Assembly: GCA_009784005.1 (NCBI GenBank)
Contig: WRCE01000003.1
Location: forward strand, 10,519-74,518
Origin: Candidatus Methanimicrococcus labiotermitis
GTDB lineage: Archaea; Halobacteriota; Methanosarcinia; Methanosarcinales; Methanosarcinaceae
Reading direction: 5' to 3'
DNA: 64,000 bases
Within the stretch, counting starts at the first letter, position 1. Every line of letters begins with the position of its first letter. The notes beneath the pieces are model-generated. The model saw only the letters and a program-made list of their open reading frames with translations, made no database searches and was not told where the DNA came from. Below are positions 930 to 54,670 of this stretch, piece by piece. Both the position numbers and the translations under genes were made by a program.

Positions 930-2234
930 TTAAGGCATCGGAGCAATGCCTTTTCCGTATCCGTCAGCCAATTTGCGGCGCTCGCGGCTGCCGCAGTTGC
1001 CGCAAACCAAAACATCGCCGTCTCTTGTCAGTGATGTTTTGCATTTGGAACAATAAGCTTTTAAAACGCCGAGGCTGCTGTCAACAGTGGACAAGCCGAT
1101 TTTGCTGCTGTCAATCACTTTGGCGCGGACAATGTCACCGACGGAGAACTCATCGGCAACGGACTTGGCAAAACCGTCTTTGATGTTGGAAACATAAATT
1201 TCGGCATTGCCCTTGTTAACGATTTCTTCGTCCAAACTTTTTTCCGCCGCGACCAAGTCGACGCGGGCGTTGGATTCGCGAACGTCGGTAATCGAGACAA
1301 TGACAACATCGCCTTCAGTGATGGTGTTTAATGTCTTAGTCTTTGGAATAATTGCAATCATGCGGTGTTCGCTGTTGATGCCGACAACGCCCATAACGGT
1401 TGAGCGGATTGTGCCGTCATCGTTAACGGTCCCAAAACCGGGTTTGTATTCTTCGATTGTGCCGACGGCTTCGCCCGGAAAAACGAAGCGTTTCGTTTTC
1501 TCAAAAACAATTTTTTCGGGGCGCTTCTTCTTCTCGCCGGGTTTGCGGCCGCCTCTGCGGTCTCCGCCGCGGTCTCCGCGGTCGCCTCTGCCGCCGTTTC
1601 TGTCACGGTCGCCTCTGCCGCCGCGGTCGTCTCTGCCGCCGCGGTCGCCTCGGCCGCCGAATTCGCCTCTTCCGCCGCGTTCGCCACGGCCGCCGAATTC
1701 GCTTCTGCCGCTGCGTTCGCCGCCGCGTTCGCCGCTTCGTTCGCCTCTGCTGACGAATTCGCCTCTGCCGCTTTGTTCGTCTCTGACGGGGCGTTCACTT
1801 CTGACGACTTGTTCATCTCTGGCGGGGCGCTCGCTTCTGACAGGGCGTTCATCTCTGACGACTTGTTCGTCTCTGACGGGGCGCTCACTTCTGACGGGAC
1901 GTTCGCCTCTGCCGCTGTCGCCGTTTTGGCTTTCGGCCGGGCGGGCGTTTCCGGCAGGGGGCCTTCTTTCGCCGCGGGGTTCACCGCGGGGTTCGTCGCC
2001 GGCATCCTCTTCCTTATTTTCACTCACGCGGTTGACTCGCTTAACCGGTTTTTTCGCTGCCTCTTCTTTGGGAGCGATTTCGGGTTTGGGACGGCGCGGA
2101 ATTCTTGATTTTTGAGGAGCTTCGGGTACGGTTTCAACCGTTTCGGGCATTTCCTTAATTTCCTTAGGTTCGTCGGTTTTAGATGACACTTCTTTCAGTC
2201 TTCTTCGGATCGGTTTCTTTTGAACTCTGCTCAT
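930..2234 (-). CDS. csl4: Exosome RNA-binding subunit Csl4 with a ~245-aa arginine/glycine/glutamate-rich repetitive N-terminal extension
   Basis: The C-terminal ~185 aa (FVFPGEAVGTIEEYKPGFGT...IVRAKVID...CSKCKTSL...LVCGNCGSRERRKL) correspond to the Csl4 N-domain, S1 domain and zinc ribbon. The N-terminus holds RGG/RGD and RSERPVRDEQVV repeats. There is no internal Met upstream of the Csl4 core. Confidence 0.8.
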   Translation of the reverse strand: MSRVQKKPIRRRLKEVSSKTDEPKEIKEMPETVETVPEAPQKSRIPRRPKPEIAPKEEAAKKPVKRVNRVSENKEEDAGDEPRGEPRGERRPPAGNARPAESQNGDSGRGERPVRSERPVRDEQVVRDERPVRSERPARDEQVVRSERPVRDEQSGRGEFVSRGERSGERGGERSGRSEFGGRGERGGRGEFGGRGDRGGRDDRGGRGDRDRNGGRGDRGDRGGDRRGGRKPGEKKKRPEKIVFEKTKRFVFPGEAVGTIEEYKPGFGTVNDDGTIRSTVMGVVGINSEHRMIAIIPKTKTLNTITEGDVVIVSITDVRESNARVDLVAAEKSLDEEIVNKGNAEIYVSNIKDGFAKSVADEFSVGDIVRAKVIDSSKIGLSTVDSSLGVLKAYCSKCKTSLTRDGDVLVCGNCGSRERRKLADGYGKGIAPMP

Positions 2235-2535
2235 AAATGAACCTTCGTGATTTGATAATTGTGAATTTGATAATTGTAAAAGCGCCGACCCGATATTCTT
2301 TTGCTGAAAGCGGCGGGCTTAAATTTGAATTAATTTGAATTAATTTGTATGAATTTGTATGAATTTGTATTCGATTCTGAATAGACATATGTGTTAATTG
2401 TTAATTCACTCGGTCAATGAATAGACATTTAACATAGATAAAATAATGTGTGCTTTTGCGTCTTTCTGCGCTTTTTCTGTGCTTTTTCTGCACTTTTTCT
2501 TCGCTTTTTCCGCGTCTTTTTCCATGTCTTCCCAG

Positions 2536-3192
2536 TCAAATATTGTCTTGACCGGAATCGATTCTGTATATCTCGACATCAAACGTTTGAATGTCTTTCT
2601 TATGAAAGTCAAACGTTCTTCGGATTGGAAAGTCTGTTATAAAGCAGTTTGTTATAACAGCGGGTTTAATAAATTTTTCTATAAAAGCGCGGCTCCCTTT
2701 GTTATGAATGGAATAAACCGTGCCGCCCGCTTTGAGCGCCGCGGTTAAAAACGGCCTGTCTTGCCCCTTCTTCTGCGCCCCAAACGGCGGATTCATGAGA
2801 ACAGTATCCGCCCGCTTCAGCTTTTTGGATTCGATGCATTCCGGAATTTCCGTGACATTCTAAACGAGAAAATCGAGCGCTTCGTTCGCGCCCGTTTCAT
2901 CAATTTCCGCTTTCATCCCGGCCGCGTTTTTAACGGCGTTAGAGACGGCGCCGTCATCAATATCAAATCCGATCACTTCTTTTGCGCCGAGAAGCGCGGC
3001 GCCGATTGAAAGGATACCTGTGCCGCAGCCCAAATCGTAAACCGTTTTGCCTTCAATGTCACCGCTCATGAAAGCCAAATGGAGAAAAGGCGCCGCCACC
3101 GTTGCCGGCGTTTTATATTGTTCATAATTGACATTCGGCGTTTCAAACCCCTCCACCTTTTCAAGCGCGATTTCCAGCTTTCTGAGTTTCAT
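2536..3192 (-). CDS. METTL5-like SAM-dependent RNA (N6-adenine) methyltransferase (COG2263 type), interrupted by one in-frame TAG at complement(2860..2862)
   Basis: The two track ORFs (2860..3210 and 2536..2796) are in the same frame. The junction reads ...[43 protein letters not shown]... The SAM motif [10 protein letters not shown] lies upstream and the NPPFG, YSIH and FIEKF motifs lie downstream. Total length (~218 codons) is normal for the family. Confidence 0.65.
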
Positions 3193-3208
3193 GAATTGAC
3201 CGCCTTTC

Positions 3209-3263
3209 AATTAATCCTTTGAATTAATCCTTTCAATTAATTCTTTGAATTAATCCTTTCAAT
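3209..3263. repeat. Intergenic minisatellite, ~14-bp unit (CAATTAATCCTTTG)
   Basis: Four copies between the methylase and dph2. Confidence 0.8.
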
Positions 3264-3269
3264 TTTTGT

Positions 3270-4394
3270 TTAATCCTGTCCGCCTTCTAAAATTTCATCC
3301 AAAACCAAATCTTCCCATGCCCGCTCACCCAAAACGATTTCAAACTCTTCGGGCGTTAAAACAGAGGCGGGATACCGGCCGGAATCATCGATTGCCAATC
3401 TCGGACAAGCCGTATTCACAAAGGCGTCCGCTTTGAATGAAAGCATTTGGTCGGGCGTCACCAAATCCATAAACAGAATAAACGCCTGTTTTTTGTGCGC
3501 CTCAGCTTTCGTTTTTAAGGATTCGGCTAATTTTTTCCGATACTGACCGTTTTTAACGGAAACCAAAATACAAAAGATTTCAGCGTTCGCCGCGTTGCCG
3601 ATGACCGCGCTTCGCTGCATTAAAAATTTTCGGGAATCGAGTTCAAAAACCTCTGTTGTAAACGGGTCGGCGCAAACGACACGCTTTTTGGATGACAAAG
3701 CGGCGCCGATGGGATGAAACTGGCCGCTGCCGATGTATAGAAAAACGTCACATGTTTTCGTGACATCGGAATGCGCCGCCGAGAAATTGCAGCCGAGAAT
3801 CTGACCGGGATGCGCGATGCGGCTGTCGCCGTTTGAGATGACAACGGTTTTCCCCGCGTCTTCCAATATCTTCTGCGCCGTTTTCAACCGGTGAACGTGC
3901 TGAACCGTTGTCAAGAGGCCGACATTTTTTTCGGGCAACAGCGGGAGCGCCGAAATCACCGCGTTTGTGACATCAACTTTGGAACGGGTTTCGATGAAGC
4001 AAACCTTTTCCTCCGCCGCCCCTTGTTTTAATTCGGAATGGCCGAAATGGAAAAGAACGTCCGCGCATTCCAAAAGACGCGTATCCAAATCGCAGGCGCC
4101 GAAACACGGGTCGGCTGAGATGTAAACAACAGACCCCTTCGTTTCTTCGATTTGAGAGGAAATATGCAGGGCGTGCTTTTTCAAGCCTTCCGGGAATTGC
4201 AGGCCGACAACGATTTCGTTTGTTTGCCGCCCGGATTTTTGTGACAGAGCGTCGATCTTATCAAAAACCGTCTGCATTTCAAAATCATAAGACGATTCAG
4301 AGAGCGGTAAAGAAGAAGCGCGAGAGGAAGAGAGAGAAGAATCGCGGGAATCGCGAGAGGGAGAGAGAGAAGAATCGCGAGAAGAACGGTTCAT
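3270..4394 (-). CDS. dph2: 2-(3-amino-3-carboxypropyl)histidine synthase Dph2 (diphthamide biosynthesis) with a Ser/Arg-rich repeat at the N-terminus
   Basis: GLQFPEGLKKHALHISSQIEE...ISADPCFGACD...HFGHS is typical of archaeal Dph2. An alternative start is Met40 (complement 4275..4277). The gene overlaps hpt by 4 nt. Confidence 0.85.
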   Translation of the reverse strand: MNRSSRDSSLSPSRDSRDSSLSSSRASSLPLSESSYDFEMQTVFDKIDALSQKSGRQTNEIVVGLQFPEGLKKHALHISSQIEETKGSVVYISADPCFGACDLDTRLLECADVLFHFGHSELKQGAAEEKVCFIETRSKVDVTNAVISALPLLPEKNVGLLTTVQHVHRLKTAQKILEDAGKTVVISNGDSRIAHPGQILGCNFSAAHSDVTKTCDVFLYIGSGQFHPIGAALSSKKRVVCADPFTTEVFELDSRKFLMQRSAVIGNAANAEIFCILVSVKNGQYRKKLAESLKTKAEAHKKQAFILFMDLVTPDQMLSFKADAFVNTACPRLAIDDSGRYPASVLTPEEFEIVLGERAWEDLVLDEILEGGQD

Positions 4395-9282: not shown

Positions 9283-9382
9283 AAATTGTTCTCCGTTTTT
9301 GGCATAATTAAATTAAATACAAAATGAAATGGTAGACGTTTTTTTAAGTTATGGGAGGCCGATGTTAAATAAAAAATCAGCC

Positions 9383-9546
9383 GTAAATATTAAATTTTAA
9401 GTTCGTAAATGTTAAGCTCGTAAATATTAAGCTCGTAAATGTTAAGCTCGTAAATGTTAAGCTCGTAAATGTTAAGCTCGTAAATATTAAGCTCGTAAAT
9501 ATTTAATTTTAAAATATTAAATTCGTAAATATTAATTTCGTAAATA
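9383..9546. repeat. Intergenic minisatellite, 16-bp unit (GTTAAGCTCGTAAATR)
   Basis: About 10 copies between nrdD and the glutaredoxin gene. Confidence 0.85.
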
Positions 9547-9710
9547 ATTGACTGTTTAGATAATCGATAGTCAGGTAATCAGTCGTCAAGTAATTGACAA
9601 TTAATACAATAGATAATTGTTAGTAACAACAATAGACATTAACAAGTAATATAAAGGTAATTGGAAGGCGGGCGGACACGTTTATGAAAACGTTTCCTGA
9701 GGCGTTCAAT

Positions 9711-9962
9711 TTACGTGATCAATGACATGATTTCTTCTTTGACGGCGTTGCCTTCAAAGATCTCTTTGTAAGTCAGGAACGTATCATCGATCTGAAGGAC
9801 CGGCGCGACGTTTGTAAAGATATTGTTCATAGCCAATTCCGTGAGGGCGTCGGGCGTTCCCATATTCATTTCCTCATACGCGATGTTTTTGGATTGGAAA
9901 TAGCTTTTCAAAATTTTGCATTTCGGGCAAACATCTGTTGTGTATACAATAATCTTTGACAA
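9711..9962 (-). CDS. Glutaredoxin/NrdH-like small redoxin
   Basis: 83 aa with a CPKC active site near the N-terminus (IIVYTTDVCPKCKILK). It lies upstream of nrdD on the same strand. Confidence 0.8.
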   Translation of the reverse strand: MSKIIVYTTDVCPKCKILKSYFQSKNIAYEEMNMGTPDALTELAMNNIFTNVAPVLQIDDTFLTYKEIFEGNAVKEEIMSLIT

Positions 9963-10649
9963 ACTTTCACCTTAATATTGGTTCACTGGAAGACAAACGC
10001 AAGCGACTGTCCGATATAAAGAATAATAAACAATATAACCCGCGCTTTTATCCGGTTTTCAAAAAGGCAGAAAGCCTTTCACAGGATTAAATGAAACGTT
10101 TTTAACACCACATAATTAACATCACAATTAACACCATTTAAATTGCAATCCGGCGGTTTCGCGACCGAAAAGTTGGTGAAAATTAAATAACAGTCTCGTT
10201 GTTTAATAAGCTTTTTACTATCGGTTTTGTATTCAAAGTCCTGAAACGATATCGGAGCAACCAAAGACTTGTATTCGGAACAATTGAAGAAAATATATGA
10301 AAATCGTGTGCCGCCGATTGATAACTAAGTTGATAATAAACATGATAACAATTCTGCTGATGCTGATTTTAAATAGTAATCATTTCTATTAAGAGGAACC
10401 GTTCGGCTGATTATGTTTTCTAATCAGAAGAGTTACTAATTTGAAAACGACCATTAATCTGACAATTGACAAAAATTTTTCGATGCCTTAGTAAAACTCG
10501 GCACCTTGGTAAAATCAGGCTTGTGAGTGCCGCGCCCGCGCCCCGAATAAAACGTGATGAGTAGCCGACGGGAACAAAATAGTGCGTCGACAAAAAACGA
10601 CGAATGCGGCAACTGAAAAACAGAAACAAAGGGAAAAAACAAACTGAGG

Positions 10650-11585
10650 AAAATGAAACACCCCTTTCTTCGACAAAATAAGAAATGGGAACGCCCCTTT
10701 TCCCGAAACTCATCTTTCAGGTTTTAAAAAGAGGCGTTCAGGTTTTGAATAAAACGAACAAATCGGTGTTTCATTTTTTTAATTCTCTTTTAGCCCCTAA
10801 AACCGACCGTTCATTACGAATTCCGGTCTGAGCGCAGCGAAGAACGGAATCGGAATGAACGGCTATTATCATTATTTGCTGATGCTGATACTGATATTTA
10901 TGTTGATGTTGATGCTGTTGCCGGTTTATTGTCAATCTGTACTAATGAGAAAAATGTACTGATAATAGTGATGAGAATAAGTTGTGCGCCGCATTTTCGT
11001 CTTTCGTCCGCTTCGCTCCCGAAATCCGAAATTGCGGTCGTACTTGAACTTTTCAAAGAATAACAAAAATGAAACATCCTTTCTTCAACAAAATAACAAA
11101 AATGAAACACCCCTTTCTTCAACAAAATACGAAAAGGGAACGCCCCTTTTCCCGAAACTCATCTTTCAGGTTTTAAAAAGAGGCGTTCAGGTTTTGAATA
11201 AAACGAACAAATCGGTGTTTCATTTTTTCTTCTCTTTTAACCCCTAAAACCGACCGTTCATTACGAATTCCGGTCTGAGCGCAGCGAAGAACGGAATCGG
11301 AATGAACGGCTATTATCATTATTTGCTGATGTTGATGCTGATGTTGATGCTGATGTTGATGCAGATGTTGATGCTGATGCTGTTGCCGGTTTATTGTTAA
11401 TCTGTACCGATGAGAAGAATGTGCAGATAAATATTGATGAGAAAAATGTACTGACAATATTGATGAGAATAAGTTGTGCGCCGCATTTTCGTCTTTCGTC
11501 CGCTTCGCTCCCGAAATCCGAAATTGCGGTCGTACTTGAACTTTTCAAAGAACAACAAAAAAGAAACACCCTTTTATTCATCAAA
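10650..11585 (+). repeat. Family-1 composite structured repeat, two tandem units of about 440 bp (modules M3-M2-microsatellite-M1)
   Basis: Module M3 is a nested inverted repeat (TGAAACACC...GAACGCC...GGCGTTC...GGTGTTTCA). Module M2 is the hairpin CCGTTCATTACGAATTCCG...CGGAATCGGAATGAACGG. Then comes a variable (GCTGAT/GTTGAT)n core. Module M1 is GCCGCATTTTCG...CGAAATTGCGGT. The units are near-identical to the copies at 14.6-15.2 kb and 38.3-39.0 kb. Confidence 0.85.
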
Positions 11586-11624
11586 AAGGAAAAAACAACG
11601 GCAAAAACAGCAAACTTGAAAGAT

Positions 11625-12896
11625 TTATCTGACGTTTGTCAGCTTCCCGTCCTTGGATAAAACAACAACGCGGCTCGGCTCGGATTCGCCGGCGTATTGA
11701 TATCCGGCAAAGGACGCGATGTCATTCGCAAACGCCCGAATCTCTTCTTGTTCCGCCATGTTGGCGCGCGCCAGGCGCAGTCTTGAAAAGCCCACGTGCA
11801 TGTAGGATTTGACTTCAACGAAATCGGGCGCCGCGATTTTTATCAGTTCGGCAAGTCCGGGCGCGTCTGCCATGTTTAAGCCTTTGACAGCGGTCACCCG
11901 AATGACTGTCCTGACGCCTTCTGATTTCTTTTCTTTGAGAACCGCCAGGGACTCATTCACTTTTTCCCAAAGGTTTTTGCTTTTCGGGCGGCAAACGTTA
12001 TCATACATTTCAGGCGTGGACGCGTCTAAACTCATGTAAAGCTGAGTCGGTTTGATTTGACGAAGCATGTCGGGATTCGTTCCGTTGGTGACAAGAAAAA
12101 CCGTCATGCCGGCTTTTTCAAATTCCGTGACCAACTCAGGCAGCCGCGGATAAAAAGTCGGCTCGCCGGAAAGAGATATGGCGACGTTGGACGGGTTGAC
12201 GGCTTCTTCGTAGTGGCCGGGAACCGCGTTTTTTGACCCGCCGAAGCCGGTAATCAATTTTCGCTGGGCTTTGACACTCTCCCTCACAATCGTTTCCGGG
12301 TCGTCCCACGAATCGGGAATACCCGCTTCGACTTCCGTCGGGCGCCAGCAAAAAACGCATGCCTGATTACACATCAGGGTCGGCGTCATCTGAAGGCAGC
12401 GATGGGACGTCACGCCGTAAAAAGAAGATTTGTAACAAACGCCCGTGCCGTTCATTGAATTTTTCAGCCACGAGCATGTTTTAACGGCGGAATGGGCGCC
12501 GGCTTTCGCGTAACCCTGACGGCGCATCAGCTCGTCAATCGAAATGTCTTCGGGAGAATAATGAAAACGGCTTCTTTCTTCGGAAGGGGTGGGAGGAGAG
12601 GAGCCTTTAATCAGGCCCTCGGCTGAATCCCGAGTGGAATCGCAAGAGGAATCGCAAGGGGAATCGCGGGTGGAATCACAGGCGGAATCGCAGGCGGAAT
12701 CACAGGCGGAATCACAGGCGGAATCGCGGGTGGAATCGCAGGTGGAATCGCGAGCGGAATCACGGGTGGAATCACGAGTGGAATCACGGGCGGAATCACG
12801 AGTGGAATCTCGGATTGAACCTTCTCTTTTTTCACAATCAGTGACCGGTTTTTTTTCATTCATTTTTGTGACCCGAAATAAAAATACGATTCGCAA
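11625..12896 (-). CDS. taw1: tRNA 4-demethylwyosine synthase (TYW1/Taw1, radical SAM) with a repeat-encoded N-terminal extension
   Basis: Radical-SAM CX3CX2C (MCNQACVFCWR), an upstream Cys cluster (KTCSWLK...GVCYK), SLSGEPT, and FLVTNGT. The N-terminus carries (DSTRDSA)n repeats. Confidence 0.85.
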   Translation of the reverse strand: MRIVFLFRVTKMNEKKPVTDCEKREGSIRDSTRDSARDSTRDSTRDSARDSTCDSTRDSACDSACDSACDSACDSTRDSPCDSSCDSTRDSAEGLIKGSSPPTPSEERSRFHYSPEDISIDELMRRQGYAKAGAHSAVKTCSWLKNSMNGTGVCYKSSFYGVTSHRCLQMTPTLMCNQACVFCWRPTEVEAGIPDSWDDPETIVRESVKAQRKLITGFGGSKNAVPGHYEEAVNPSNVAISLSGEPTFYPRLPELVTEFEKAGMTVFLVTNGTNPDMLRQIKPTQLYMSLDASTPEMYDNVCRPKSKNLWEKVNESLAVLKEKKSEGVRTVIRVTAVKGLNMADAPGLAELIKIAAPDFVEVKSYMHVGFSRLRLARANMAEQEEIRAFANDIASFAGYQYAGESEPSRVVVLSKDGKLTNVR

Positions 12897-12920
12897 TGTA
12901 ACTTAAACAATTTGATTAAC

Positions 12921-13072
12921 AATGCCTTAAACGATACCTTAAACGATGCCTTAAACAATGCCTTAAACAATGCCTTAACGATGCCTTAAACGATGCCTAA
13001 ACAATGCTTTAAACAATACTTTAAACGATGTCTTAAACGATGCAGCTTAAACGATGCAGCTTAAACGATGTA
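12921..13072. repeat. Intergenic minisatellite, ~12-bp unit (GCCTTAAACGAT)
   Basis: About 12 copies upstream of taw1, reaching the 3' end of the 390-aa ORF. Confidence 0.85.
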
Positions 13073-14233
13073 ATATCTGTTGTTGCTGCTCGGCTTTTCC
13101 CGTTCCGTCACGTCGGCGCCGATCAGGCTGGCGATTTCCAGGCCGTCGCCGCAGGTATTCGCCAATGAGGAGTACAATTCGTCTTTGGAAATGTATTTCT
13201 CGGTACGCGTTCCGTCTGCCAGTTGTATCTTTATGGAAATTTCGGATTTGATGGGGCTTCTGCGGATGCACTCGGAAATAATTGCGGCGTATTGCGTGGC
13301 AATGATTTTCATGCAGTCGAAAATCAAATTGTTGGCAATGGCATCATCGTCGTCGATTAATATTTCCGTCAATTCAAAAGAAGAAATGCTTTTACGGATA
13401 TACTCGACAATGTTTTTCGGGATTTTCTGAAGTTCGGAATCCTCAATCAAAACCGCCAAATCCGTGTCAGCCGTGATGTCGCGGCCGTCATCGTAAACCG
13501 AGAAATTGCCGTTTTTACGAACAATGCGGATGATTTTCTTTTTGTTTTCAAGCTCCAAAGAGAAGTTATACAAATCATCGTACTGAATGGAAAGGATAAG
13601 GAATTCCGATAAACTGAGAACGCGCGGCTTTTGTTCTTTTGAGAACAGGCCGGTTGATGCCATAAACGGCAGTGAAAAGTCCCCGAGAAGTCTTTGAACG
13701 GTCAATTTTTCATCGGCAAAATGCAGCTTGTAATTGAATTTAAGACCGAAGGCGTAACAATAAAGCATGCCGCCAAGGACTTGGTCGTAAGAAATATCAT
13801 AAACGCGTTTGGAGCCGTAGACGCCTGAAATTAAAAAAGGGTTTAAGATTTTGATAATTTCGGCTTCCTTGGATTTGACCCGGATGTCAGAATCCTTTTT
13901 CAAGGAGGCGAGTGCGGCTTCGTATTCATCGTGCGTCCGGCGAATGAATTTATCGCAGACGTCCATGATTTCGCCGATGCACGGCTCTAAGAGAGCGGTC
14001 TCTTCGTTGTCGCGGTCGGTCGGCAGGGAATGAGAAAGGCCTACCTTGAAATTACTCAAAATAAGAAGTTTCCGTTCAAAAACCGAACTTTGGTCTTTTT
14101 CCAGGTCCTTCAATTCCATGATTTGGTTTTCAAGAGGCAGAATTTTTTCAAGGCATTCCACATAATTTTTCAAATCTTGAATAAAGTCCCTCTGGACCGG
14201 AAGTTCCGTCCCGTCCTGATAAGTGTAAAGCAT
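13061..14233 (-). CDS. Hypothetical protein (390 aa), no recognisable domain
   Basis: A long uninterrupted ORF with normal composition. I recognise no motif. Confidence 0.5.
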   Translation of the reverse strand: MLYTYQDGTELPVQRDFIQDLKNYVECLEKILPLENQIMELKDLEKDQSSVFERKLLILSNFKVGLSHSLPTDRDNEETALLEPCIGEIMDVCDKFIRRTHDEYEAALASLKKDSDIRVKSKEAEIIKILNPFLISGVYGSKRVYDISYDQVLGGMLYCYAFGLKFNYKLHFADEKLTVQRLLGDFSLPFMASTGLFSKEQKPRVLSLSEFLILSIQYDDLYNFSLELENKKKIIRIVRKNGNFSVYDDGRDITADTDLAVLIEDSELQKIPKNIVEYIRKSISSFELTEILIDDDDAIANNLIFDCMKIIATQYAAIISECIRRSPIKSEISIKIQLADGTRTEKYISKDELYSSLANTCGDGLEIASLIGADVTEREKPSSNNRYYIV

Positions 14234-14254
14234 AGGCGCACCTTTGAATTGTTA

Positions 14255-14355
14255 AAATTGTTAATAATGACGATAATAACGATAATGATGATAATGACGA
14301 TAATGACGATAATGATGATAATAACGATAATGTTGATAATGTCGATAATGAATAT
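14255..14355. repeat. Intergenic minisatellite, 12-bp unit (GATAATGACGAT/GATAATGATGAT)
   Basis: Read directly upstream of the 390-aa ORF. Confidence 0.8.
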
Positions 14356-14589
14356 AACTTAATTATGTTATTTTCTTTTTAAGAGTTTCGTAACTTATAT
14401 AAACGTGACAAATACCCGAAATTGTCACAAATTTTTGTGACGTTAATTCGCACTACCCTGTTTTTAAGTTCAATGTGTGAAAAAAACAAACCGATTTTGA
14501 AAAAACAAATGACGAAATGAAAAACGACAAAAACGAAACATCATTTTGAAAAAAATTGTAATCAAGAAACAAAATGAGAAAATTGTAAG

Positions 14590-15205
14590 AGAGAATGTAC
14601 TGATAATATTGATGAGAATAAGTTGTGAGCCGCATTTTCGTCTTTCGTCCGCTTCGCTCCCGAAATCCGAAATTGCGGTCGTACTTGAACTTTTCGAAGA
14701 ATAACAAAAAATGAAACACCCCTTTCTTCTGAAAATAAGAAAAATGAACGCCCCTTTTCCCGAAACTTATCTTTCAGGTTTTTAAAAAACGGCGTTCGGG
14801 TTTGAATAAAATCAACGAAAATCGGTGTTTCATTTTTTATTCTCTTTTAACCCCTAAAACCGACCGTTCATTACGAATTCCGGTCTGAGCGCAGCGAAGA
14901 ACGGAATCGGAATGAACGGCTATTATCATTATTTGCTGATGCTGATGTTGATACTGATGCAGGTTTGTTATCTGTCTATTTTCAGCCTATTGTCTGTCTA
15001 TTTTCAGTTAATATTGATGATGATATTGATGATGATATTGATGATGATATTGATGATGATATTGATGATGATATTGATGATGATATTGATGATATTATTG
15101 ATGATAATATTGATGAAAATAAGTTGTGCGCCGCATTTTCGTCTTTCGTCCGCTTCGCTACCGAAATCCGAAATTGCGGTCGTACTTGAACTTTTCAATG
15201 AATAA
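14590..15205 (+). repeat. Family-1 composite structured repeat (M1-M3-M2-microsatellite-M1)
   Basis: Same modules as locus 1. Here the variable core is (TGATGATATTGA)n at about 15005-15110. Confidence 0.85.
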
Positions 15206-15312
15206 TAAAAATGAAACTAATCGAAAAAACAGTAAACAAAAATGAAACTAATCAAAAAAACAGTGAGCAAAAGGAAAAAAGAAAAAAGGACAAGAACTTG
15301 CCCTTTCGAATT

Positions 15313-25575: not shown

Positions 25576-26061
25576 TCAGCTTCTTTCCAGCAGATAGGCC
25601 TTAACCGCCTGCCAGTCGGGAAACTTTTCCGACCCGAAATGTATCCATTCCCCTTCAAAAAGGCAGGCGCCGTTTTTGTCGCGGTCATCCACCAAAAAGT
25701 CACCTTTGTTTAAGTTTTTGTGATGCGTCAGGATAAGCCGCTTGTGCGCAGGCTCGCCTAAATTTTCTTTGACCCATATCAGTTTATCCGACCACGCGCT
25801 GTTGTTTTCCCAGGGGGCGGTGGAAAGGATATAGACATCGAATCGGCAGCACAACTCATGAAAACTCTCAATCGCGCCGTTAATTGGTTTCATTAATCTG
25901 AAAATATCCGGGATTTCATCAAAGGAAGACGGTTTGTTTCTTTCGGGGCAAGCGGCATATTTCTACTTGGTCTCCTCGTCCATTTCATCAATGACGGACT
26001 GGAAATCAACGAGAACGCCGTCCATGTCAATATAAAGAATTTTCTTATCGCCTTTAACCAT
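25576..26061 (-). CDS. 5'(3')-deoxyribonucleotidase (NT5C/HAD family), interrupted by one in-frame TAG at complement(25963..25965)
   Basis: My own translation from the ATG at complement(26059..26061) gives MVKGDKKILYIDMDGVLVDFQSVIDEMDEETK-TAG-KYAACPERNKPSSFDEIPDIFRLMKPINGAIESFHEL..., which continues into track ORF 25576..25893 in the same frame. HAD motif I (DMDGV) lies upstream of the TAG and the rest of the fold lies downstream. Confidence 0.65.
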
Positions 26062-38120: not shown

Positions 38121-38274
38121 TTTCAAAAACAGCAACAAAACGTATGTTATTTCCGCCGCCTTTGGTCGACAACAAATTAATTGTTTCGGCTGAAGGCGGT
38201 TTTTTTATTTCCTTTCGTTTATTTTCGTTACATCGTTTTTTCCTTTTGTTTCTGTTTTTTCCTTTTTTTTGATG

Positions 38275-39003
38275 AATAAAAGAGTGTTTCATTTTTGTTA
38301 TTCTTTGAAAAGTTCAAGTACGACCGCAATTTCGGATTTCGGTAGCGAAGCGGACGAAAGACGAAAATGCGGCGCGCGACCTATTTTTATCAATATTATC
38401 AACATCCTTCTTCTCATCAGTACAGATTAACAATAAATCGACAACTGCATCGGACAATAAACCGGCAACAGCATCAGCACCAGCATCAGCAAATAATGAT
38501 AATAGCCGTTCATTCCGATTCCGTTCTTCGCTGCGCTCAGACCGGAATTCGTAATGAACGGTCGGTTTTAGGGGCTAAAAGAGAAGAAAAAATGAAACAC
38601 CAATTCATTCGTTTTATTCAAACCCGAACGCCGCTTTTTTAAAACCTGAAAGATAAGTTTCGGGAAAAGGGGCGTTCCCTTTTCTTATTTTTTGAAGAAA
38701 GGGGTGTTTCATTTTTTTTATTCATCGAAAGTTCAAGTACGACCGCAATTTCGGATATCGGGAGTGAAGCGGACGAAAGACGAAAATGCGGCGCACGACC
38801 TATTTTTATCAATATTATCAGCATCCTTCGTTCCATTAGTACAGATTGGCAATAAACCGGCAACAAGAAGAAAAAATGAAACACCAATTCATTCGTTTTA
38901 TTCAAAATCAGAACGCCGCTTTTTTAAAACCTGAAAGATAAGTTTCGGGAAAAGGGGCGTTCCCTTTTCTTATTTTTCTAAGAAGGGGGTGTTTCATTTT
39001 TCT
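38275..39003 (-). repeat. Family-1 composite structured repeat, inverted orientation (M1-core-M2-M3-M1-M3)
   Basis: Reverse complements of M1 (about 38301-38390 and 38722-38805), M2 (about 38480-38580) and M3 (about 38585-38710 and 38870-39000). Confidence 0.85.
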
Positions 39004-39147
39004 CAGTTATTTTGCCGCGTCCTTTGAGGGCGCCGGATTGATGCGGATGACAGATACTTGAAGCTGATGACAGATGCTGAAAACCTTCGTAAAATAATCT
39101 TAAATATAATAACTGCCTTTAATGGCAAAAGTTCAAGGAACATTTTT

Positions 39148-46352: not shown

Positions 46353-47366
46353 TTACTGGAAGTATTTGTCTCTTGCCGCAACCATTTCTCTGATGTTGGC
46401 GGAGGGTGTCATCGGTGCGATACCGCAGCCGGGCGCAAGGATTGCGACTTTGGCGTCAAGAGCGCGGTTCACAGCGTCTTGGACTTTGGCGGCGTCGCCG
46501 CTCAAGAGGACGAAGGGGCTGGAAACGTTGCCGATCATGGTTGCGCGGCCTTTTGTTTTGTCAACAGCGCCGGCAAGGTCTTCGACTTTTTCTTCAACAC
46601 TGAGGCCCTTGCAGTTGCAGTTTGCCATGTCGTTGAGGATGGGTGCCACGTTGCCGCAGACGTGAAGAACAACGGGTGCGTTGACTTTGTCTGCGAATTC
46701 GGTGATGACGCCCATGAGTTTGTCATGGAAGTCCTGCGGGCTCATCAAGTCGGGGGAGGAAACGGGGTCAGCGATACAGATGATGTCTGCGCCGGCTTCG
46801 ACCATCATGTTTGCGTATTCGATCGCGGCGTCGTTGGCAAAGGAGTTTGCTTTGGCGAGCGCGTCGGGGTTTTTGATGGACCATTTCATATAAGATTTAA
46901 CACTGACGAGGTCAGAAGCGAGTGTGACGGGGCCTTCCATGCCGGCGATGATCGGAACGTCGGGACCGATTTTTGCGCGGATTGCTTTGATGGCTTCAAT
47001 AACAGCGGGGATTCTGCCTGCTGTCTTCAAGTCGGGCTTTGTTGCCGCGTCAAGCATTTCGGGCTTTTCGTACGGGTGAGCAATAACAGAGGGCTGTCTG
47101 TTCTTTGTTCCCATGTTGACTTCACAGCCCATTGCTTCGGCAAGGACGGTCAAACAGTAGGGGACACGGACAGCTTCAAGACCGCAAAGTTCGTGCGCGG
47201 CGATGGCAAGGTCTGTCATCATCTTTGCATTGGACTGGGAGTCCGGCCACGGTGCATTGACAGCATCCATCAATTCAACAGTTCCCGTTTGTGTCATGGA
47301 CACGACGGGGGTCTTTGCAACTTCTTCGCCATTTAAGGCTTTTAACAAATTCTCTTTAAGCGTCAT
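46353..47366 (-). CDS. mtaA: Methylcobamide:CoM methyltransferase (MtaA/MtbA, uroporphyrinogen-decarboxylase family)
   Basis: GLEAVRVPYCLTVLAEAMGCEVNMGTKNRQPSV..HPY, MEGPVTLASDLVSVKSYMKWSIK and ADPVSSPDLMSP are near-identical in pattern to the Methanosarcina MtaA I recall. I cannot separate MtaA from MtbA by eye. Confidence 0.85.
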   Translation of the reverse strand: MTLKENLLKALNGEEVAKTPVVSMTQTGTVELMDAVNAPWPDSQSNAKMMTDLAIAAHELCGLEAVRVPYCLTVLAEAMGCEVNMGTKNRQPSVIAHPYEKPEMLDAATKPDLKTAGRIPAVIEAIKAIRAKIGPDVPIIAGMEGPVTLASDLVSVKSYMKWSIKNPDALAKANSFANDAAIEYANMMVEAGADIICIADPVSSPDLMSPQDFHDKLMGVITEFADKVNAPVVLHVCGNVAPILNDMANCNCKGLSVEEKVEDLAGAVDKTKGRATMIGNVSSPFVLLSGDAAKVQDAVNRALDAKVAILAPGCGIAPMTPSANIREMVAARDKYFQ

Positions 47367-50080: not shown

Positions 50081-51334
50081 ATGGATTCAGAATGGTTGAC
50101 TCCCAAAGAAGCCGGAGTTAAATGGGGAATAAAAACGAGGCGCGTACAAGCACTTTGCTTAAAGGGGCAAATAAACGGTGCGGTTCGCATAGATCGATTT
50201 TGGTTAATTCCTAAAAACACTCCAAAACCCATTGATAGTCGAACGAAAATCAAAAAGCAATTACATAGTCAAGTGAATGAAATTGATACAGTCAAAGATA
50301 ATAATAAACCACGATTAATTTCATTATTCTCTGGTTGCGGTGGTCTTGACCTTGGTTTTGAAAAGGCGGGATTTGAGAGAGTGTGGGCTAATGACTTTGA
50401 TTCAGATGCACAAGCTGTTTATACCCGTAATCTTGGTAAAATAGATGGGCGGGATATATTAAGCGTAGATGAAGACGATATTCCTGAAGGGGATATATTA
50501 ACAGCTGGATTTCCCTGTCAACCATTTTCTAATGCTGGGAACCGTAAAGGTGTTCATGATTCTAGGGGTATGCTATACAAGGAATGCCTTCGAATTATTG
50601 AAAGTAAAATGCCAAAGGTTATTGTATTTGAAAATGTAAAAGGATTATTGTCAACAAAATATATTGATGGGCGCAACTTGGTTGACGTCATTAATGAAGA
50701 TTTGTCAACAATTGGAGGCGTGGGTTACAATGTTGTTCATAAACTTCTAAACGCTGCTGACTACGGCGTTCCACAAAACAGGCAAAGAGTTTTTTTTGTT
50801 GGGATAAAAAAAGATTTAAAAATTAATTTTGTTTTTCCCGAAAAGCAAATAAAAAATAATTTGACAATTCGGAATGTTCTGGAAATGCCCAAAGATTTAC
50901 CCAATCAAATTGATTGGGGGTTGTCACCCCAAGCACTTGAAATGATTGAATACATACCAGAGGGTGGTTCTTGGAAAGATATTCCTTATGAGCAATTAGC
51001 GCCTCGTTTTCAACGAATAAGAGATGATATGAAGAAATATCGCTCGCCTAATTTTTATAGACGTTTTTCGCGTGATGAAATTAACGGAACAATTACAGCA
51101 TCGGCTCAACCCGAAAACTGTGGTATTATCCACCCGACCGAAAATCGCCGTTATACGATTCGTGAAATTGCTCGAATACAAACTTTTCCAGATGATTTCC
51201 TATTTATTGATGACACACCAAAAAACATTACAGCAATGTATAAAGTCATTGGAAATGCCGTGCCCGTAATCCTAGCTCAGAATATAGCCTCTTCGATTAT
51301 GGAACAAGTTTTCAAAGGAGAACAGGCATGTTAA
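50081..51334 (+). CDS. DNA (cytosine-5)-methyltransferase with an N-terminal helix-turn-helix (excisionase/MerR-like) domain
   Basis: C5-MTase motifs I LFSGCGGLDLGF, IV GFPCQPFS, VI FENVKGL, VIII QNRQRVFFVG and X IGNAVP. The N-terminal ~50 aa (WLTPKEAGVKWGIKTRRVQALCLKGQI) look like an HTH. Confidence 0.9.
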   Translation: MDSEWLTPKEAGVKWGIKTRRVQALCLKGQINGAVRIDRFWLIPKNTPKPIDSRTKIKKQLHSQVNEIDTVKDNNKPRLISLFSGCGGLDLGFEKAGFERVWANDFDSDAQAVYTRNLGKIDGRDILSVDEDDIPEGDILTAGFPCQPFSNAGNRKGVHDSRGMLYKECLRIIESKMPKVIVFENVKGLLSTKYIDGRNLVDVINEDLSTIGGVGYNVVHKLLNAADYGVPQNRQRVFFVGIKKDLKINFVFPEKQIKNNLTIRNVLEMPKDLPNQIDWGLSPQALEMIEYIPEGGSWKDIPYEQLAPRFQRIRDDMKKYRSPNFYRRFSRDEINGTITASAQPENCGIIHPTENRRYTIREIARIQTFPDDFLFIDDTPKNITAMYKVIGNAVPVILAQNIASSIMEQVFKGEQAC

Positions 51335-52896
51335 TGAATACCGATAAAGCATATCTTTTTGGTTTGATAATCGGTGGTGGGATTTGGCGAAACAACGAAG
51401 ACGGATTCATAATCCACCTCCCGTATAGGAAATGGGGTTCATATGACCAGAATCCCAGACGTGCCTCTCAAATATCAGGAGACATTGTACAATTTTTAAA
51501 CCCATTGTTTAGAAACATTTACGGCCTCAATATTTCTTTTGATGGAACTGCTCGCGGTGATTGGAATATTTTGTTTGAGGGAGATTTGACAGAGTTGAAA
51601 TCCGATTTGCAGTCATACGGTATTGAATGCGAAGGCGAATTGCGTAGTACTGCAAGTATTGGTGGGATAATTGCTGATTTATTTGATGAAAATATGAAAC
51701 GGAGATTTATTGCAGGACTTGCCGATACCATAGGTAGCACAAATAAAAACCACCGGCGATTTTCAGCTGAAATCCAAACTTTATCGTTTGAGTTAAAAGG
51801 CTTTAATTTCTCATTCGTTTGTGAGTTGTGCCGCCTTTTGTATAGTGTAAACTGTTTACCCGATCAAATTCTGTGGAACCATCCCAACTTCCAATCAGCA
51901 AGTGACTCTTACTATACGAAATGGAATAAAGGTACCAAACTCCGCATCCAACTTGATCAATATGCTAAATTCGGAGCGTTTGCTTTCAAAACAAAGGCGG
52001 AATCATCTATCGAAAATCGTAGCTTGCAGCAACAAACGCATAGTGCAGTTTCGTGCCCCGAACGCGAAATTCGAGCGAAAACTTCCTGCTTTCATCCCGG
52101 AGAGAATGATAAAAGGTTGCCTGATTGCATCCGTGGAGGACATTATCTCCATAATCGCCATGTCTGTGCTGTTATGGGATGTGAAAATGCACCATATGAT
52201 ACTATTAGAGGCTTATTTTCAAATGTTGGAGATTTAATTATTCCTTTCCCAATATTGTGTAAAAATACAATACAGAAAATAGAAGAAATAATTAAAGAAG
52301 AGCCGTTGCTTGCTAATCGAGAGTATTCTATTGCAAACGTTAGTGTAAAATCATTATACGAACTTTATAAAGCAGACCATAACGCATTATTATTTGGAAA
52401 CAATGCTAATAATGGGTACCCTATTGCCAAAATAATCCAAGGCATATCTTATGTGATTGCTGATGAAAATGAATTAAATGGCGCACGCCCCAAAGGCAAC
52501 TTTGAAAAGATTGTAGAACATCGCATACATCATGAAATGAATAATAAATACCCAAATATTCTTTCTAGGTTTGAAGTTCAAGAGTCAAATTTTATTATTG
52601 CTGAAAATACTGAAGGAGTTTCCTATACAGTAAATGCTGATGAGCTAAATAAACACCCTAAAAATAAATCACTGATAGACTTAGGGCGTGATTTGTCTAC
52701 CGCCACTGGCCTTATGGTCGAATTCCGTAAACCTGATTTGTTAACACCTTTAGTAATCACTGGAAATGGTCGAGGTGTATTGATTGGTGCGCATAACCCG
52801 AGTGTTTATGAAAAACTTGTTACGATTGCCCCGGATAATGAATATAAATTGTGTGTCCGCCCAATAACTGAAGGAGATTTGCGTAATGCGAAATGA
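51328..52896 (+). CDS. Hypothetical 522-aa protein with two degenerate LAGLIDADG-like motifs; candidate nuclease or specificity partner of the upstream methyltransferase
   Basis: KAYLFGLIIGGG (aa ~7-18) and RRFIAGLADTIGS (aa ~124-136) resemble LAGLIDADG motifs at roughly the spacing expected of a double-motif LAGLIDADG enzyme. The gene overlaps both neighbours (7 nt and 11 nt). The functional assignment is tentative. Confidence 0.45.
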   Translation: MLMNTDKAYLFGLIIGGGIWRNNEDGFIIHLPYRKWGSYDQNPRRASQISGDIVQFLNPLFRNIYGLNISFDGTARGDWNILFEGDLTELKSDLQSYGIECEGELRSTASIGGIIADLFDENMKRRFIAGLADTIGSTNKNHRRFSAEIQTLSFELKGFNFSFVCELCRLLYSVNCLPDQILWNHPNFQSASDSYYTKWNKGTKLRIQLDQYAKFGAFAFKTKAESSIENRSLQQQTHSAVSCPEREIRAKTSCFHPGENDKRLPDCIRGGHYLHNRHVCAVMGCENAPYDTIRGLFSNVGDLIIPFPILCKNTIQKIEEIIKEEPLLANREYSIANVSVKSLYELYKADHNALLFGNNANNGYPIAKIIQGISYVIADENELNGARPKGNFEKIVEHRIHHEMNNKYPNILSRFEVQESNFIIAENTEGVSYTVNADELNKHPKNKSLIDLGRDLSTATGLMVEFRKPDLLTPLVITGNGRGVLIGAHNPSVYEKLVTIAPDNEYKLCVRPITEGDLRNAK

Positions 52897-53458
52897 AGTA
52901 TCCTATTACCCAGAGATACAGACTTTTATCGAAGCGCAATTAAGAAGCAATTTTTTGGCGAGTAACCGCCGCGAATTGTATGTATATTGGGGAATCGGCG
53001 AATTGAAAAACAATCTCCAACGTATCATTATCGAGCACCCCGACAAATGTGCTTGCGTTTCAAAATTCGCAGAGCGTGTTCCACCGTTAAGTCTTGATAT
53101 ATTTGCTCTGATTACAGATGGGATAAAATTCGAACTTTTGATTTTAGAGATCAAACTTTTGAATGCCGTAGGGTTGAAAGAATGGTCACAACTTGTGGGA
53201 TATTGTTTTGTATCAGGTTCAAAATATGGGTTGCTTGTCAATATCAACAACGGGGCCAGTCCACGCTTAACTCAATTATTGCATACTGAACATCATATAT
53301 CTCACATACAGACAATAGTTAATAGTGAGCCTTGTGAACATATGCTTGGATTCATGCAATGGAATGACCTTACCCAAAATTTTGAATATAGCAATTTCGG
53401 TTTTATTAAATCGTTATCGGAATTAAGTGATAGACTCGCAGCCGAATTTTCAAAATAA
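52886..53458 (+). CDS. PD-(D/E)XK-like nuclease-fold protein (candidate restriction endonuclease subunit)
   Basis: PPLSLDIFALITDG...FELLILEIKLL gives a D...ExK arrangement followed by ...SQLVGY. It is the last gene of the operon. Confidence 0.5.
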   Translation: MRNEVSYYPEIQTFIEAQLRSNFLASNRRELYVYWGIGELKNNLQRIIIEHPDKCACVSKFAERVPPLSLDIFALITDGIKFELLILEIKLLNAVGLKEWSQLVGYCFVSGSKYGLLVNINNGASPRLTQLLHTEHHISHIQTIVNSEPCEHMLGFMQWNDLTQNFEYSNFGFIKSLSELSDRLAAEFSK

Positions 53459-53749
53459 ATTCAGCAAATAAAAACATTTATTAAACGTGACAAACGAACC
53501 TAATACCACATAAAAAAAGAAAACGTAATGGAAAATCCCTCTTATCTTCAATCAAGAAGTGCATAATTTCATGACTCCATTTGCATTTGGAATTATGGTG
53601 ACAATGAGTTTTGTTTACTAAACGAGAATATAAAAAGATCATTGAAAGTGGCACCCAATTCTCATTATTAATGAAAAAATATTTCTAATATTATAAGAAA
53701 AATGGATACAATTCAATGAATATATTATATCGGTTGGATTCATTATAAT

Positions 53750-54670
53750 TTAACTGATTTTTTTAACTTCTGATTCGAGTTTCTCAAGATTCTTCTTATG
53801 TTTCCGAATATTTTCTCTTATTTCTTTGCATTTCTCAGAATTAAAACTAACATTCTTTTTTTTATTTTTGAAGTATTCAATGCCATTTTCATTGCATAAA
53901 ACAGAATGAGCGAAAATATTTCGAGGTATTATAATTTCATTATGATATTCCCTTGAAAAATCATCCAGATCTAACTGATTTAATATTTCACCAATTGCTA
54001 AAGATTGTTGATATGACGAAAAGAGAAGAGGATCGGCCATCAAATCATCAATCGAACATTCGAGTTTGCACTTTTCAAAATATTTGGACTTGGACCTGAG
54101 ATGAGTGGCAATTTCATCAAATATTTTTTTTGATAATTGTTCTGTATCTAACTCAGCGCATTTTGTACATGAATTGATGATTTCAAAAGCCGCAGCGTCT
54201 AATGAGCTGGTTTCATGCATAATCATACCGCGCATGGCAATTATATGCTGAAATTTTTGAATTGTCAAATCAATAAGTTTAATAATTTCATTATAAACTG
54301 ACTTATGATGAGTTTCAGAAGAGAATTTGGAAGTTTCTAAAAATGTGCTACGATTAATTTGACCAATATCCCTTAATTTTTTTGCAGTATAGAATAAAAT
54401 TTCTGTGGAAATGTTTGATTGGCGAATAAGTTGAATTATTTGATCACCGTTTTTTCCTGTGGATTCATCCTCCACTAGATTATAGTCTATAAGCATGAGA
54501 TCAAAATCCTCATTTAGGGATCGCTCAAAATCGTCAGAATTTGAAATTGAGATAATGGATGGTTCAAATCCATGATTAGATAAATGCACTTTTACTTTTT
54601 CAAGCCAGTCATCATCAATAAAATCATTAATACGATCATCTAACCATAGAATGTTATACCTTAGTTTCAT
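53750..54670 (-). CDS. Receiver (CheY-like REC) domain protein with a C-terminal HEPN-like domain (RNIFAH motif)
   Basis: REC features: acidic pocket ILWLDD, phospho-acceptor candidate D62 in DLMLIDYNL, and T95 in LFYTAKK. The C-terminal half is all-alpha and carries Rx4H as R250-N-I-F-A-H255 (complement 53906..53923). It overlaps the kinase gene by 4 nt. Confidence 0.6.
   Translation of the reverse strand: MKLRYNILWLDDRINDFIDDDWLEKVKVHLSNHGFEPSIISISNSDDFERSLNEDFDLMLIDYNLVEDESTGKNGDQIIQLIRQSNISTEILFYTAKKLRDIGQINRSTFLETSKFSSETHHKSVYNEIIKLIDLTIQKFQHIIAMRGMIMHETSSLDAAAFEIINSCTKCAELDTEQLSKKIFDEIATHLRSKSKYFEKCKLECSIDDLMADPLLFSSYQQSLAIGEILNQLDLDDFSREYHNEIIIPRNIFAHSVLCNENGIEYFKNKKKNVSFNSEKCKEIRENIRKHKKNLEKLESEVKKIS

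Follow-up and report, generated by a model that had tools for sequence, protein, structure and literature searches.

A single in-frame TAG codon, probably read as pyrrolysine, in a METTL5-family methyltransferase gene of Methanimicrococcus

The methylamine methyltransferases MtmB, MtbB, and MttB use pyrrolysine (Pyl) in catalysis and have it at a position that different taxa share. The gene described here would share the tRNA-Pyl/PylS decoding of these enzymes, but the position of its TAG codon is variable, and Pyl is probably incidental there. Thg1 of Methanosarcina acetivorans (Heinemann et al. 2009) likewise has one in-frame UAG at a nonconserved site of a housekeeping RNA-modifying enzyme in the Methanosarcinaceae, with no PYLIS element, and in bioRxiv 10.1101/2024.09.30.615893 and PMC12626013 it serves as the case of neutral evolution, read as drift enabled by the Pyl machinery. 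We read the TAG codon of the METTL5 gene in the same way, although Thg1 belongs to another enzyme family and its Pyl insertion and activity were shown by experiment, whereas here they are predicted. Kivenson et al. (bioRxiv 10.1101/2024.09.30.615893) predict over 1000 "Category 1" genes, in which homology at >30% identity flanks the TAG in both directions and the extension exceeds 15 aa, and they name Methanimicrococcus among the genera with numerous internal-TAG genes.

Two views of UAG in Pyl+ archaea have been published, complete reassignment and ambiguous decoding. The former, termed "Genetic Code 34," was demonstrated with proteomic data for M. burtonii and M. alvi (bioRxiv 10.1101/2024.09.30.615893), whereas in M. 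acetivorans UAG is ambiguous, acting as both stop and Pyl, with RdmS made in a long and a short form (Shalvarjian et al. 2025, PMC12626013). Like the METTL5 gene, RdmS is unrelated to methylamine use and carries its UAG internally, in a Pyl+ species of the Methanosarcinaceae, and it predicts a mix of full-length and truncated product tuned by pyl expression; the RdmS case was established in a genetic model by western blotting. The METTL5 gene fits the Category 1 definition, and TAG is rare or absent as a terminator around it, as under Genetic Code 34. No paper mentioning both pyrrolysine and METTL5 was found in the literature searched; the METTL5 TAG is a further example of a documented phenomenon, represented by Thg1 and the Category 1 genes, and not a new phenomenon. 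We consider it probable (roughly 0.8) that UAG-111 of this gene is decoded as pyrrolysine and the full 218-aa enzyme is made in a Pyl-decoding Methanimicrococcus.

The window, that is, the whole 64-kb stretch of DNA analyzed here, carries the METTL5-family methyltransferase gene on its minus strand at 2536..3192. The gene starts with ATG at 3192, ends with TGA at 2536..2538, and has 218 codons, one of which is an in-frame TAG. The TAG, a candidate pyrrolysine codon, occupies complement(2860..2862) on the minus strand as codon 111 and is the single internal stop in the translation of the gene, with the junction reading ...EALDFLV-TAG-NVTEIPE.... Across 2400..3400 of the minus strand, this frame is open from the ATG at 3192 to the TGA, and the TAG is its sole break. 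The open reading frames (ORFs) flanking the TAG, 2860..3210 (116 aa counted from a TTG) and 2536..2796 (86 aa), lie in one frame. The first-pass annotation had taken these two ORFs for one gene of normal length, split only by the TAG and free of frameshifts, and both the translation and the end-to-end alignments agree, the two closest orthologues also having exactly 218 codons and no indels. Its figure of 116 aa for the truncated product did not hold: every orthologue begins MKLRKLE, so the ATG at 3192 is the real start, and the truncated product is therefore 110 aa.

Codons 1-110 (2863..3192, minus strand) encode the N-terminal helix, the EQY motif, S-adenosylmethionine (SAM) motif I (DLGCGTG), the GFDID acidic motif, and strand beta-3, and codons 112-218 (2539..2859, minus strand) encode Asn112, the catalytic NPPF(G) at 134-138, DRPF, YSIHN, and the FHKK C-terminal sheet. 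The motifs that the first-pass annotation had reported as kept on the two sides, DLGCGTG before the TAG and NPPFG, YSIH, and FIEKF after it, were all found. In a 41-sequence alignment, DLGCGTG at 53-59 and GFDID at 75-79, both upstream of the TAG, fall in invariant columns, as do the N-terminal E24-Q25-Y26 and, downstream of the TAG, NPPF at 134-137; all 29 of the 29 family-invariant positions downstream of the TAG are kept. The motifs of the C-terminal half (codons 112-218) are all needed for a functional enzyme. Pfam returned generic methyltransferase matches only (PrmA, MTS, and Methyltransf_31), all on codons 1-110. A separately translated C-terminal fragment beginning at Met133 was considered and ruled out, with Met133 being family-invariant and the fragment being without strand beta-4.

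The source is a metagenome-assembled genome, and the ENA contig and the window differ structurally elsewhere by an inversion between repeats, both of which speak for a sequencing or assembly error that turned a true TTG or TCN codon into an artefactual TAG. The METTL5 locus lies outside the repeats, however, and the sequence is 100% identical, including the TAG, in the NCBI/JGI 77.8-kb contig, the ENA MEGAHIT assembly (ERZ27257304 k141_1639260), and Logan SRR10512951; the reads behind these may overlap, but the same one-base consensus error in three assemblies is unlikely. We therefore give an artefact hardly any credence and treat the TAG as a real codon of the gene.

By motifs, sequence, and fold, the gene is an intact member of the METTL5 family, with its product predicted to be a small-subunit rRNA N6-adenosine methyltransferase. 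Single phmmer alignments crossing the TAG were obtained with PDB 1wy7 (Pyrococcus PH1948; E 4.8e-41, query residues 4-212) and with human METTL5 (PDB 6h2u; E 1.2e-31, residues 2-210); PDB 1ne2 matched at E 2.5e-22, and the next-best matches, to unrelated methyltransferases, were at ~1e-5. A search of 5.8 billion proteins yielded 2215 homologues, the best of which are uninterrupted proteins of 204-234 aa from Methanimicrococcus species, 73-85% identical and named "METTL5 family protein"; the best 120 of the 2215 matches span 189-234 aa. Each of the 40 aligned orthologues has its full length and encodes an amino acid where the window gene has the TAG. An AlphaFold model was made of the closest orthologue (218 aa, 85% identical), which was the query in place of the TAG-containing sequence itself, with pLDDT 86 and pTM 0.87. 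Its best structural matches were 1wy7 (TM 0.78-0.88), the human METTL5-TRMT112 structures 9ohl and 6h2u (0.71-0.80), and 1ne2 (Ta1320), with the next structural match at E ~1e-9. Human METTL5 makes 18S rRNA m6A1832 and carries the motifs 126-NPPF-129 and Tyr29, and Haloferax volcanii HVO_1475, which binds Trm112, is the proposed maker of 16S m6A1432 (PMC6735865). The gene here shares fold, length, and motifs (GxGxG, NPPF, and the Tyr of EQY) with METTL5, PH1948, and HVO_1475, but, unlike it, none of these characterized members has a recoded stop codon.

Methanimicrococcus belongs to the Methanosarcinales, one of the two orders that the first-pass annotation had named as decoding UAG as pyrrolysine, and all cultured members of the genus reduce or grow on methylamines and carry pylBCDS (PMC11362671). 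A search of the rest of the genome for pyl genes had been proposed as a check on read-through, and a complete pylT-pylS-pylB-pylC-pylD cluster was found on contig k141_2839615 of ERZ27257304 (L092), which shares its sample and accession block with the window. tRNA-Pyl(cta) was identified by ARAGORN at 9890..9959 of this contig, directly upstream of pylS (10001..11332; MCL2863039.1, "MAG: Methanimicrococcus sp."), and the cluster further comprises pylB (11440..12561; MCL2863038), pylC (12778..13956; with a Pfam ATP-grasp_3 domain), and pylD (14087..14926; MCL2863035). The cluster was located with M. blatticola PylS, itself obtained by a genome scan, as query of a protein search followed by accession look-up; in M. 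blatticola, tRNA-Pyl lies directly upstream of pylS. A query with M. mazei PylRS returned no protein named Methanimicrococcus among its best 120 matches, nearly all of the named ones being Methanosarcina, and two look-ups among the weakest matches listed traced to the unrelated sample ERZ25039545.

The window contig and the pyl contig are both present in metagenome sample ERZ27257304. The window proteins, MCL2862614-56, include Csl4 (MCL2862614), Dph2 (MCL2862616), NrdD (MCL2862620), SepRS (MCL2862629), MtaA (MCL2862649), and also MCL2862656, and they fall with the pyl cluster (MCL2863035-39) in one NCBI accession block, both labeled "MAG: Methanimicrococcus sp." A second Methanimicrococcus strain in the same sample has a separate block of its own, with METTL5 as MCL2549742 and PylD as MCL2549878, and the MCL28630xx pyl cluster thus goes with the MCL28626xx block of the window. 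From accession contiguity and the shared sample, in place of a closed genome, we infer that the pyl contig and the window come from the same genome. No repeats common to the two were found. Within the window, neither tRNA-Pyl nor any RNA family was detected (ARAGORN; Rfam at gathering threshold), and Pfam scans of ~36 ORFs gave no pyl or methylamine methyltransferase genes. The mtmB, mtbB, and mttB genes were found neither in the window nor in L092, with the window having only an MtaA-type methylcobamide:CoM methyltransferase (46353..47366).

Other TAG codons of the genus, beside these genes and elsewhere, support a sense reading of UAG at the level of the genus. This MAG and M. blatticola agree in the end of the gene that precedes pylT, ...LLTL-TAG-QL(P/T)A-stop, with the TAG and four codons conserved; L092 holds one TAG-ending gene, in which a TGA follows after 4 conserved codons. 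In a repeat protein of M. blatticola, VGGxVG repeats run on in frame past a TAG.

Stop usage was surveyed in 62 non-overlapping ORFs of >=70 aa within the 64-kb window; TAA closes 37 of them, TGA 22, and TAG 3. The 3 TAG-ending ORFs are the METTL5 gene, 10420..10713, and 14453..14719, and the latter two were rejected as genes, both lying in dispersed-repeat DNA and not being credible. Among the window ORFs of >=150 aa, none has TAG as its terminator. Credible TAG terminators thus number 0 in ~59 genes, while 9.4% of the stop trinucleotides, counted over both strands, are TAG. The probability of finding none in 59 is ~0.003 at 9.4%, ~2e-4 at 13.5%, and ~0.05 at 4.9%, the last two frequencies being the reported TAG-terminator share in Pyl-minus Methanosarcina and the family median in Pyl+ members, respectively. 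TAG terminators are thus apparently rarer in Methanimicrococcus (0 of ~59 here) than the family median of 4.9%.

A second gene interrupted by TAG, encoding a 5'(3')-deoxyribonucleotidase of the NT5C family, was identified on the minus strand at 25576..26061, with 161 codons and an in-frame TAG at complement(25963..25965), residue 33. Its Pfam match (PF06941, E 1.4e-13, residues 7-143) runs across the TAG, and PDB nucleotidases match as well. The catalytic DMDG motif precedes the TAG, and most of the domain follows it; 17 homologues (~150-220 aa) align end to end, and the TAG column is variable. With an internal TAG and homology on either side, the METTL5 and NT5C genes are both Category 1 genes, and the NT5C TAG counts as supporting evidence for UAG as a sense codon. 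Two TAG-containing genes and zero TAG terminators in 64 kb suggest complete or nearly complete UAG reassignment in this Methanimicrococcus lineage of insect guts.

The only serious rival to Pyl read-through is a recent pseudogene, in which a nonsense mutation struck a dispensable rRNA methyltransferase of a genome-reducing gut symbiont, leaving only a nonfunctional 110-aa fragment and little decay as yet. The intestinal Methanimicrococcus clade does have reduced genomes (PMC11362671), and UAG is able to terminate even in Pyl+ cells (PMC12626013). The TAG at codon 111 is, moreover, unique to this population: a second population carrying it did not turn up, and the 110-aa fragment sits alone in its cluster. 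As a singleton gives no age, a recent nonsense mutation would look alike. Against a pseudogene, the METTL5 and NT5C genes are both broken by TAG specifically, with no TAA or TGA break or frameshift noticed in an unsystematic look, and the missing TAG terminators (0 of ~59 genes), the presence of the pyl machinery, and the intact invariant residues all point the same way.

Selection on the gene was analyzed with the window gene and its two closest orthologues (L002 and L004), each of 218 codons without indels. A contrast of dN/dS between the N- and C-terminal halves was dropped as a test for a pseudogene, and the comparison was made from branch to branch, because truncation would relax both halves. 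On the window branch, 36.5 synonymous and 27.5 nonsynonymous changes were counted over the whole gene (omega ~0.22), with 18 and 13 in the N-terminal half and 18.5 and 14.5 in the C-terminal half, omega being ~0.22 in both. The sister branches had 24.5 synonymous and 11.5 nonsynonymous changes (L002, omega ~0.13) and 20.5 and 17.5 (L004, omega ~0.25), so that the window branch lies inside the sister range. Nonsynonymous changes make up 43% of those on the window branch vs ~78% expected under neutrality. Decay downstream of the TAG had been named beforehand as a sign that would count against read-through; no extra stops or indels were present, and omega on the window branch stayed within the sister range. 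The window branch is under purifying selection, with no relaxation, and a pseudogene would have to be recent; by a rough binomial bound, up to about a quarter of the branch could have been neutral. Taken with the evidence above, we judge a pseudogene unlikely.

The first reading of this locus, that the TAG is read through, probably as Pyl, and marks no pseudogene, is supported by the homology across the TAG, the pyl cluster, the avoidance of TAG, and the unrelaxed omega. Under Pyl decoding, a single-base change would have turned an ancestral TTG (Leu) or TCN (Ser, via TCG) into UAG at codon 111, a variable site in the loop just past strand beta-3. The cell would charge Pyl-tRNA(Pyl, CUA) from its pylTSBCD genes, and TAG would have been almost purged as a terminator; with such a charged tRNA and so few TAG terminators, ribosomes would insert pyrrolysine at UAG-111 and go on to the TGA, yielding the 218-aa enzyme. 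Where aRF1 competes, part of the product may end at 110 aa, as happens with RdmS in M. acetivorans; since UAG is ambiguous in that species (PMC12626013), a substantial share of the METTL5 product could be truncated. The lack of TAG terminators in the window leans toward complete reassignment, as far as ~85 kb of sequence can show.

At the TAG column, the 40 orthologues have Ser in 23, Cys in 7, Leu in 3, Thr in 2, and Ala, Met, Lys, Asn, and Ile in one each, and PH1948 has Gly. Few columns of the protein are as variable. The codon at the site is TTG (Leu) in the closest relative, whose gene is 83% identical in nucleotides, and TCA (Ser) in the next closest. A small residue had been expected here, and Ser in 23 of 40, Cys in 7 of 40, and Gly in PH1948 bear this out, although Ala or Gly, the residues named in advance, fit only approximately, and Leu occupies the site in the closest relative. 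Because the column is variable, the distribution that of a singleton, and the origin one-step, the TAG at codon 111 is most likely a neutral TTG/TCN-to-TAG change tolerated through Pyl decoding. The orthologue model places residue 111 at the start of the loop that follows the strand at 105-110. It directly precedes residue 112, which is Asp, Asn, or Glu in 41 of 41 aligned sequences (Asn here and Asp in most orthologues), and class I methyltransferase topology would put the loop at 111-112 near the SAM adenine. Pyl is bulky and would sit beside residue 112, and its tolerance at 111 is assumed, though Lys, Met, and Leu do occur at the column.

Both the identity of the residue at 111 as Pyl, and not another, and the efficiency of read-through at the UAG are inferred. 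A near-cognate tRNA (Gln, Lys, Tyr, or Trp) or some other suppressor could instead insert a standard amino acid, at a position that tolerates many residues and after which no PYLIS-like RNA structure is supported on the 3' side (z = -0.05); according to published work, downstream RNA structure is not required for Pyl insertion. A dedicated CUA-anticodon tRNA and its synthetase are present, and no standard amino acid was seen at TAG positions when M. burtonii and M. alvi were examined by de novo-assisted searches. Read-through with a standard amino acid is accordingly very improbable, and pyrrolysine is the residue that we favor.

A further possibility, which we also consider improbable, if somewhat less so, is that the UAG has been kept for an adaptive or regulatory end. 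Full-length METTL5, and hence 16S m6A near the decoding center, would then scale with charged tRNA-Pyl and so track the supply of Pyl from methylamines, or Pyl at the pocket for the SAM adenine would alter the activity of the enzyme. If true, such a switch would couple ribosome modification to methylamine availability. In M. acetivorans, pyl genes are up >=fourfold on trimethylamine and UAG gives long and short forms (PMC12626013), and residue 111 of the gene here directly adjoins residue 112, which is Asp, Asn, or Glu throughout the alignment. Yet the TAG is conserved in no relative and its column is among the most variable, such singletons are probably neutral according to Kivenson et al. 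(bioRxiv 10.1101/2024.09.30.615893), and we found no positive evidence for a switch.

If UAG-111 is read as pyrrolysine, the gene adds an enzyme of the translation apparatus, a METTL5-type rRNA methyltransferase, to the predicted dependants on UAG-to-Pyl decoding. TAG codons in housekeeping genes are regarded as committing a lineage to the expanded code, since loss of pyl would then cost more than methylamine use. The locus is a clean case that illustrates annotation errors in Pyl+ MAGs and would be no surprise to a specialist. Standard gene callers split or drop TAG-containing genes, and the annotation of Pyl+ archaeal MAGs, together with estimates of their completeness and pseudogene content, therefore needs TAG as a sense codon. 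At the METTL5 locus, the ENA and JGI gene calls are the 110-aa and 86-aa fragments, whereas exact look-ups of the 110-aa, 116-aa, and 86-aa fragments returned none under NCBI; the 116-aa TTG-start fragment and the 572-aa end gene had no record at all. NCBI has some protein for the locus, since exactly one accession, MCL2862615, sits between Csl4 (MCL2862614) and Dph2 (MCL2862616), and the gene may already be annotated at full length there.

The NCBI numbering in the window assigns MCL2862614 to Csl4 and MCL2862616 to Dph2, which leaves the METTL5 locus (2536..3210) with exactly 1 NCBI protein, MCL2862615. None of the 3 METTL5 fragments (110, 116, and 86 aa) was recorded under NCBI, and the public NCBI annotation of this locus may already read through the proposed pyrrolysine codon.

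An in-frame TAG was also identified in a gene of the NT5C-family 5'(3')-deoxyribonucleotidase (25576..26061, minus strand), located at complement(25963..25965), with the DMDG motif 5' of the TAG and the bulk of the domain 3' of it. The alignment with homologues spans the TAG, and the residue at the TAG column varies. In the cultured type species, M. blatticola, the locus carrying pylT and pylS (L090) includes a gene for a repeat-rich surface-type protein (13749..14864, minus strand) with VGGxVG repeats, a pattern that goes on past an in-frame TAG; this is an internal-TAG gene of that species. Further, a gene encoding a protein of approximately 280 aa with weak terpene-cyclase-like repeats was found immediately 5' of pylT, on the plus strand, both in the pyl-cluster contig attributed to the MAG (L092, 8716..9576) and in M. 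blatticola (L090, 6858..7694). The C-terminal end, ...LLTL-TAG-QL(P/T)A-stop, is common to the 2 genomes, and the conservation of the TAG together with the 4 following codons suggests that this near-terminal TAG, adjoining the pyl cluster, is read through.

Short tandem repeats with units of 9–16 nt occupy many intergenic regions of the window, including 3211..3265, 9361..9570, 12904..13043, 14252..14359, and 15011..15121, and one of these, with GGATTAATTSAAAG-like units, lies directly 5' of the METTL5 start codon. Approximately 14 tandem 12-nt repeats (GGAATCNCNGGN, plus strand; 12597..12845) encode the N-terminal region of a TYW1-like radical-SAM wyosine enzyme (11625..12896, minus strand). 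The window contains at least 6 copies of a dispersed repeat of approximately 450 nt without a meaningful match in Rfam, with direct copies at 10638..11586 and 14594..15217 and inverted copies at 38264..39008. The segment bounded by inverted copies (approximately 11.1–38.3 kb) is reversed in the ENA contig k141_1639260 relative to the window; the difference is due either to ambiguity in the assembly or to a genuine inversion polymorphism.

Csl4, the exosome cap subunit (930..2234, minus strand), has a low-complexity N-terminal extension of approximately 240 aa, abundant in Arg, Gly, Glu, and Asp and containing RGG/RGD-like and SERPVRDEQ repeats; the protein of the relative in L004 is comparably long, at 411 aa. 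A defence-like island was observed at 50081..58531, where several ORFs had no Pfam match and where 2 C-5 cytosine DNA methylases (50081..51334 and 57317..58531) are encoded, along with a protein of 885 aa (54667..57324) in which HATPase_c_3 and HATPase_c domains were recognized.
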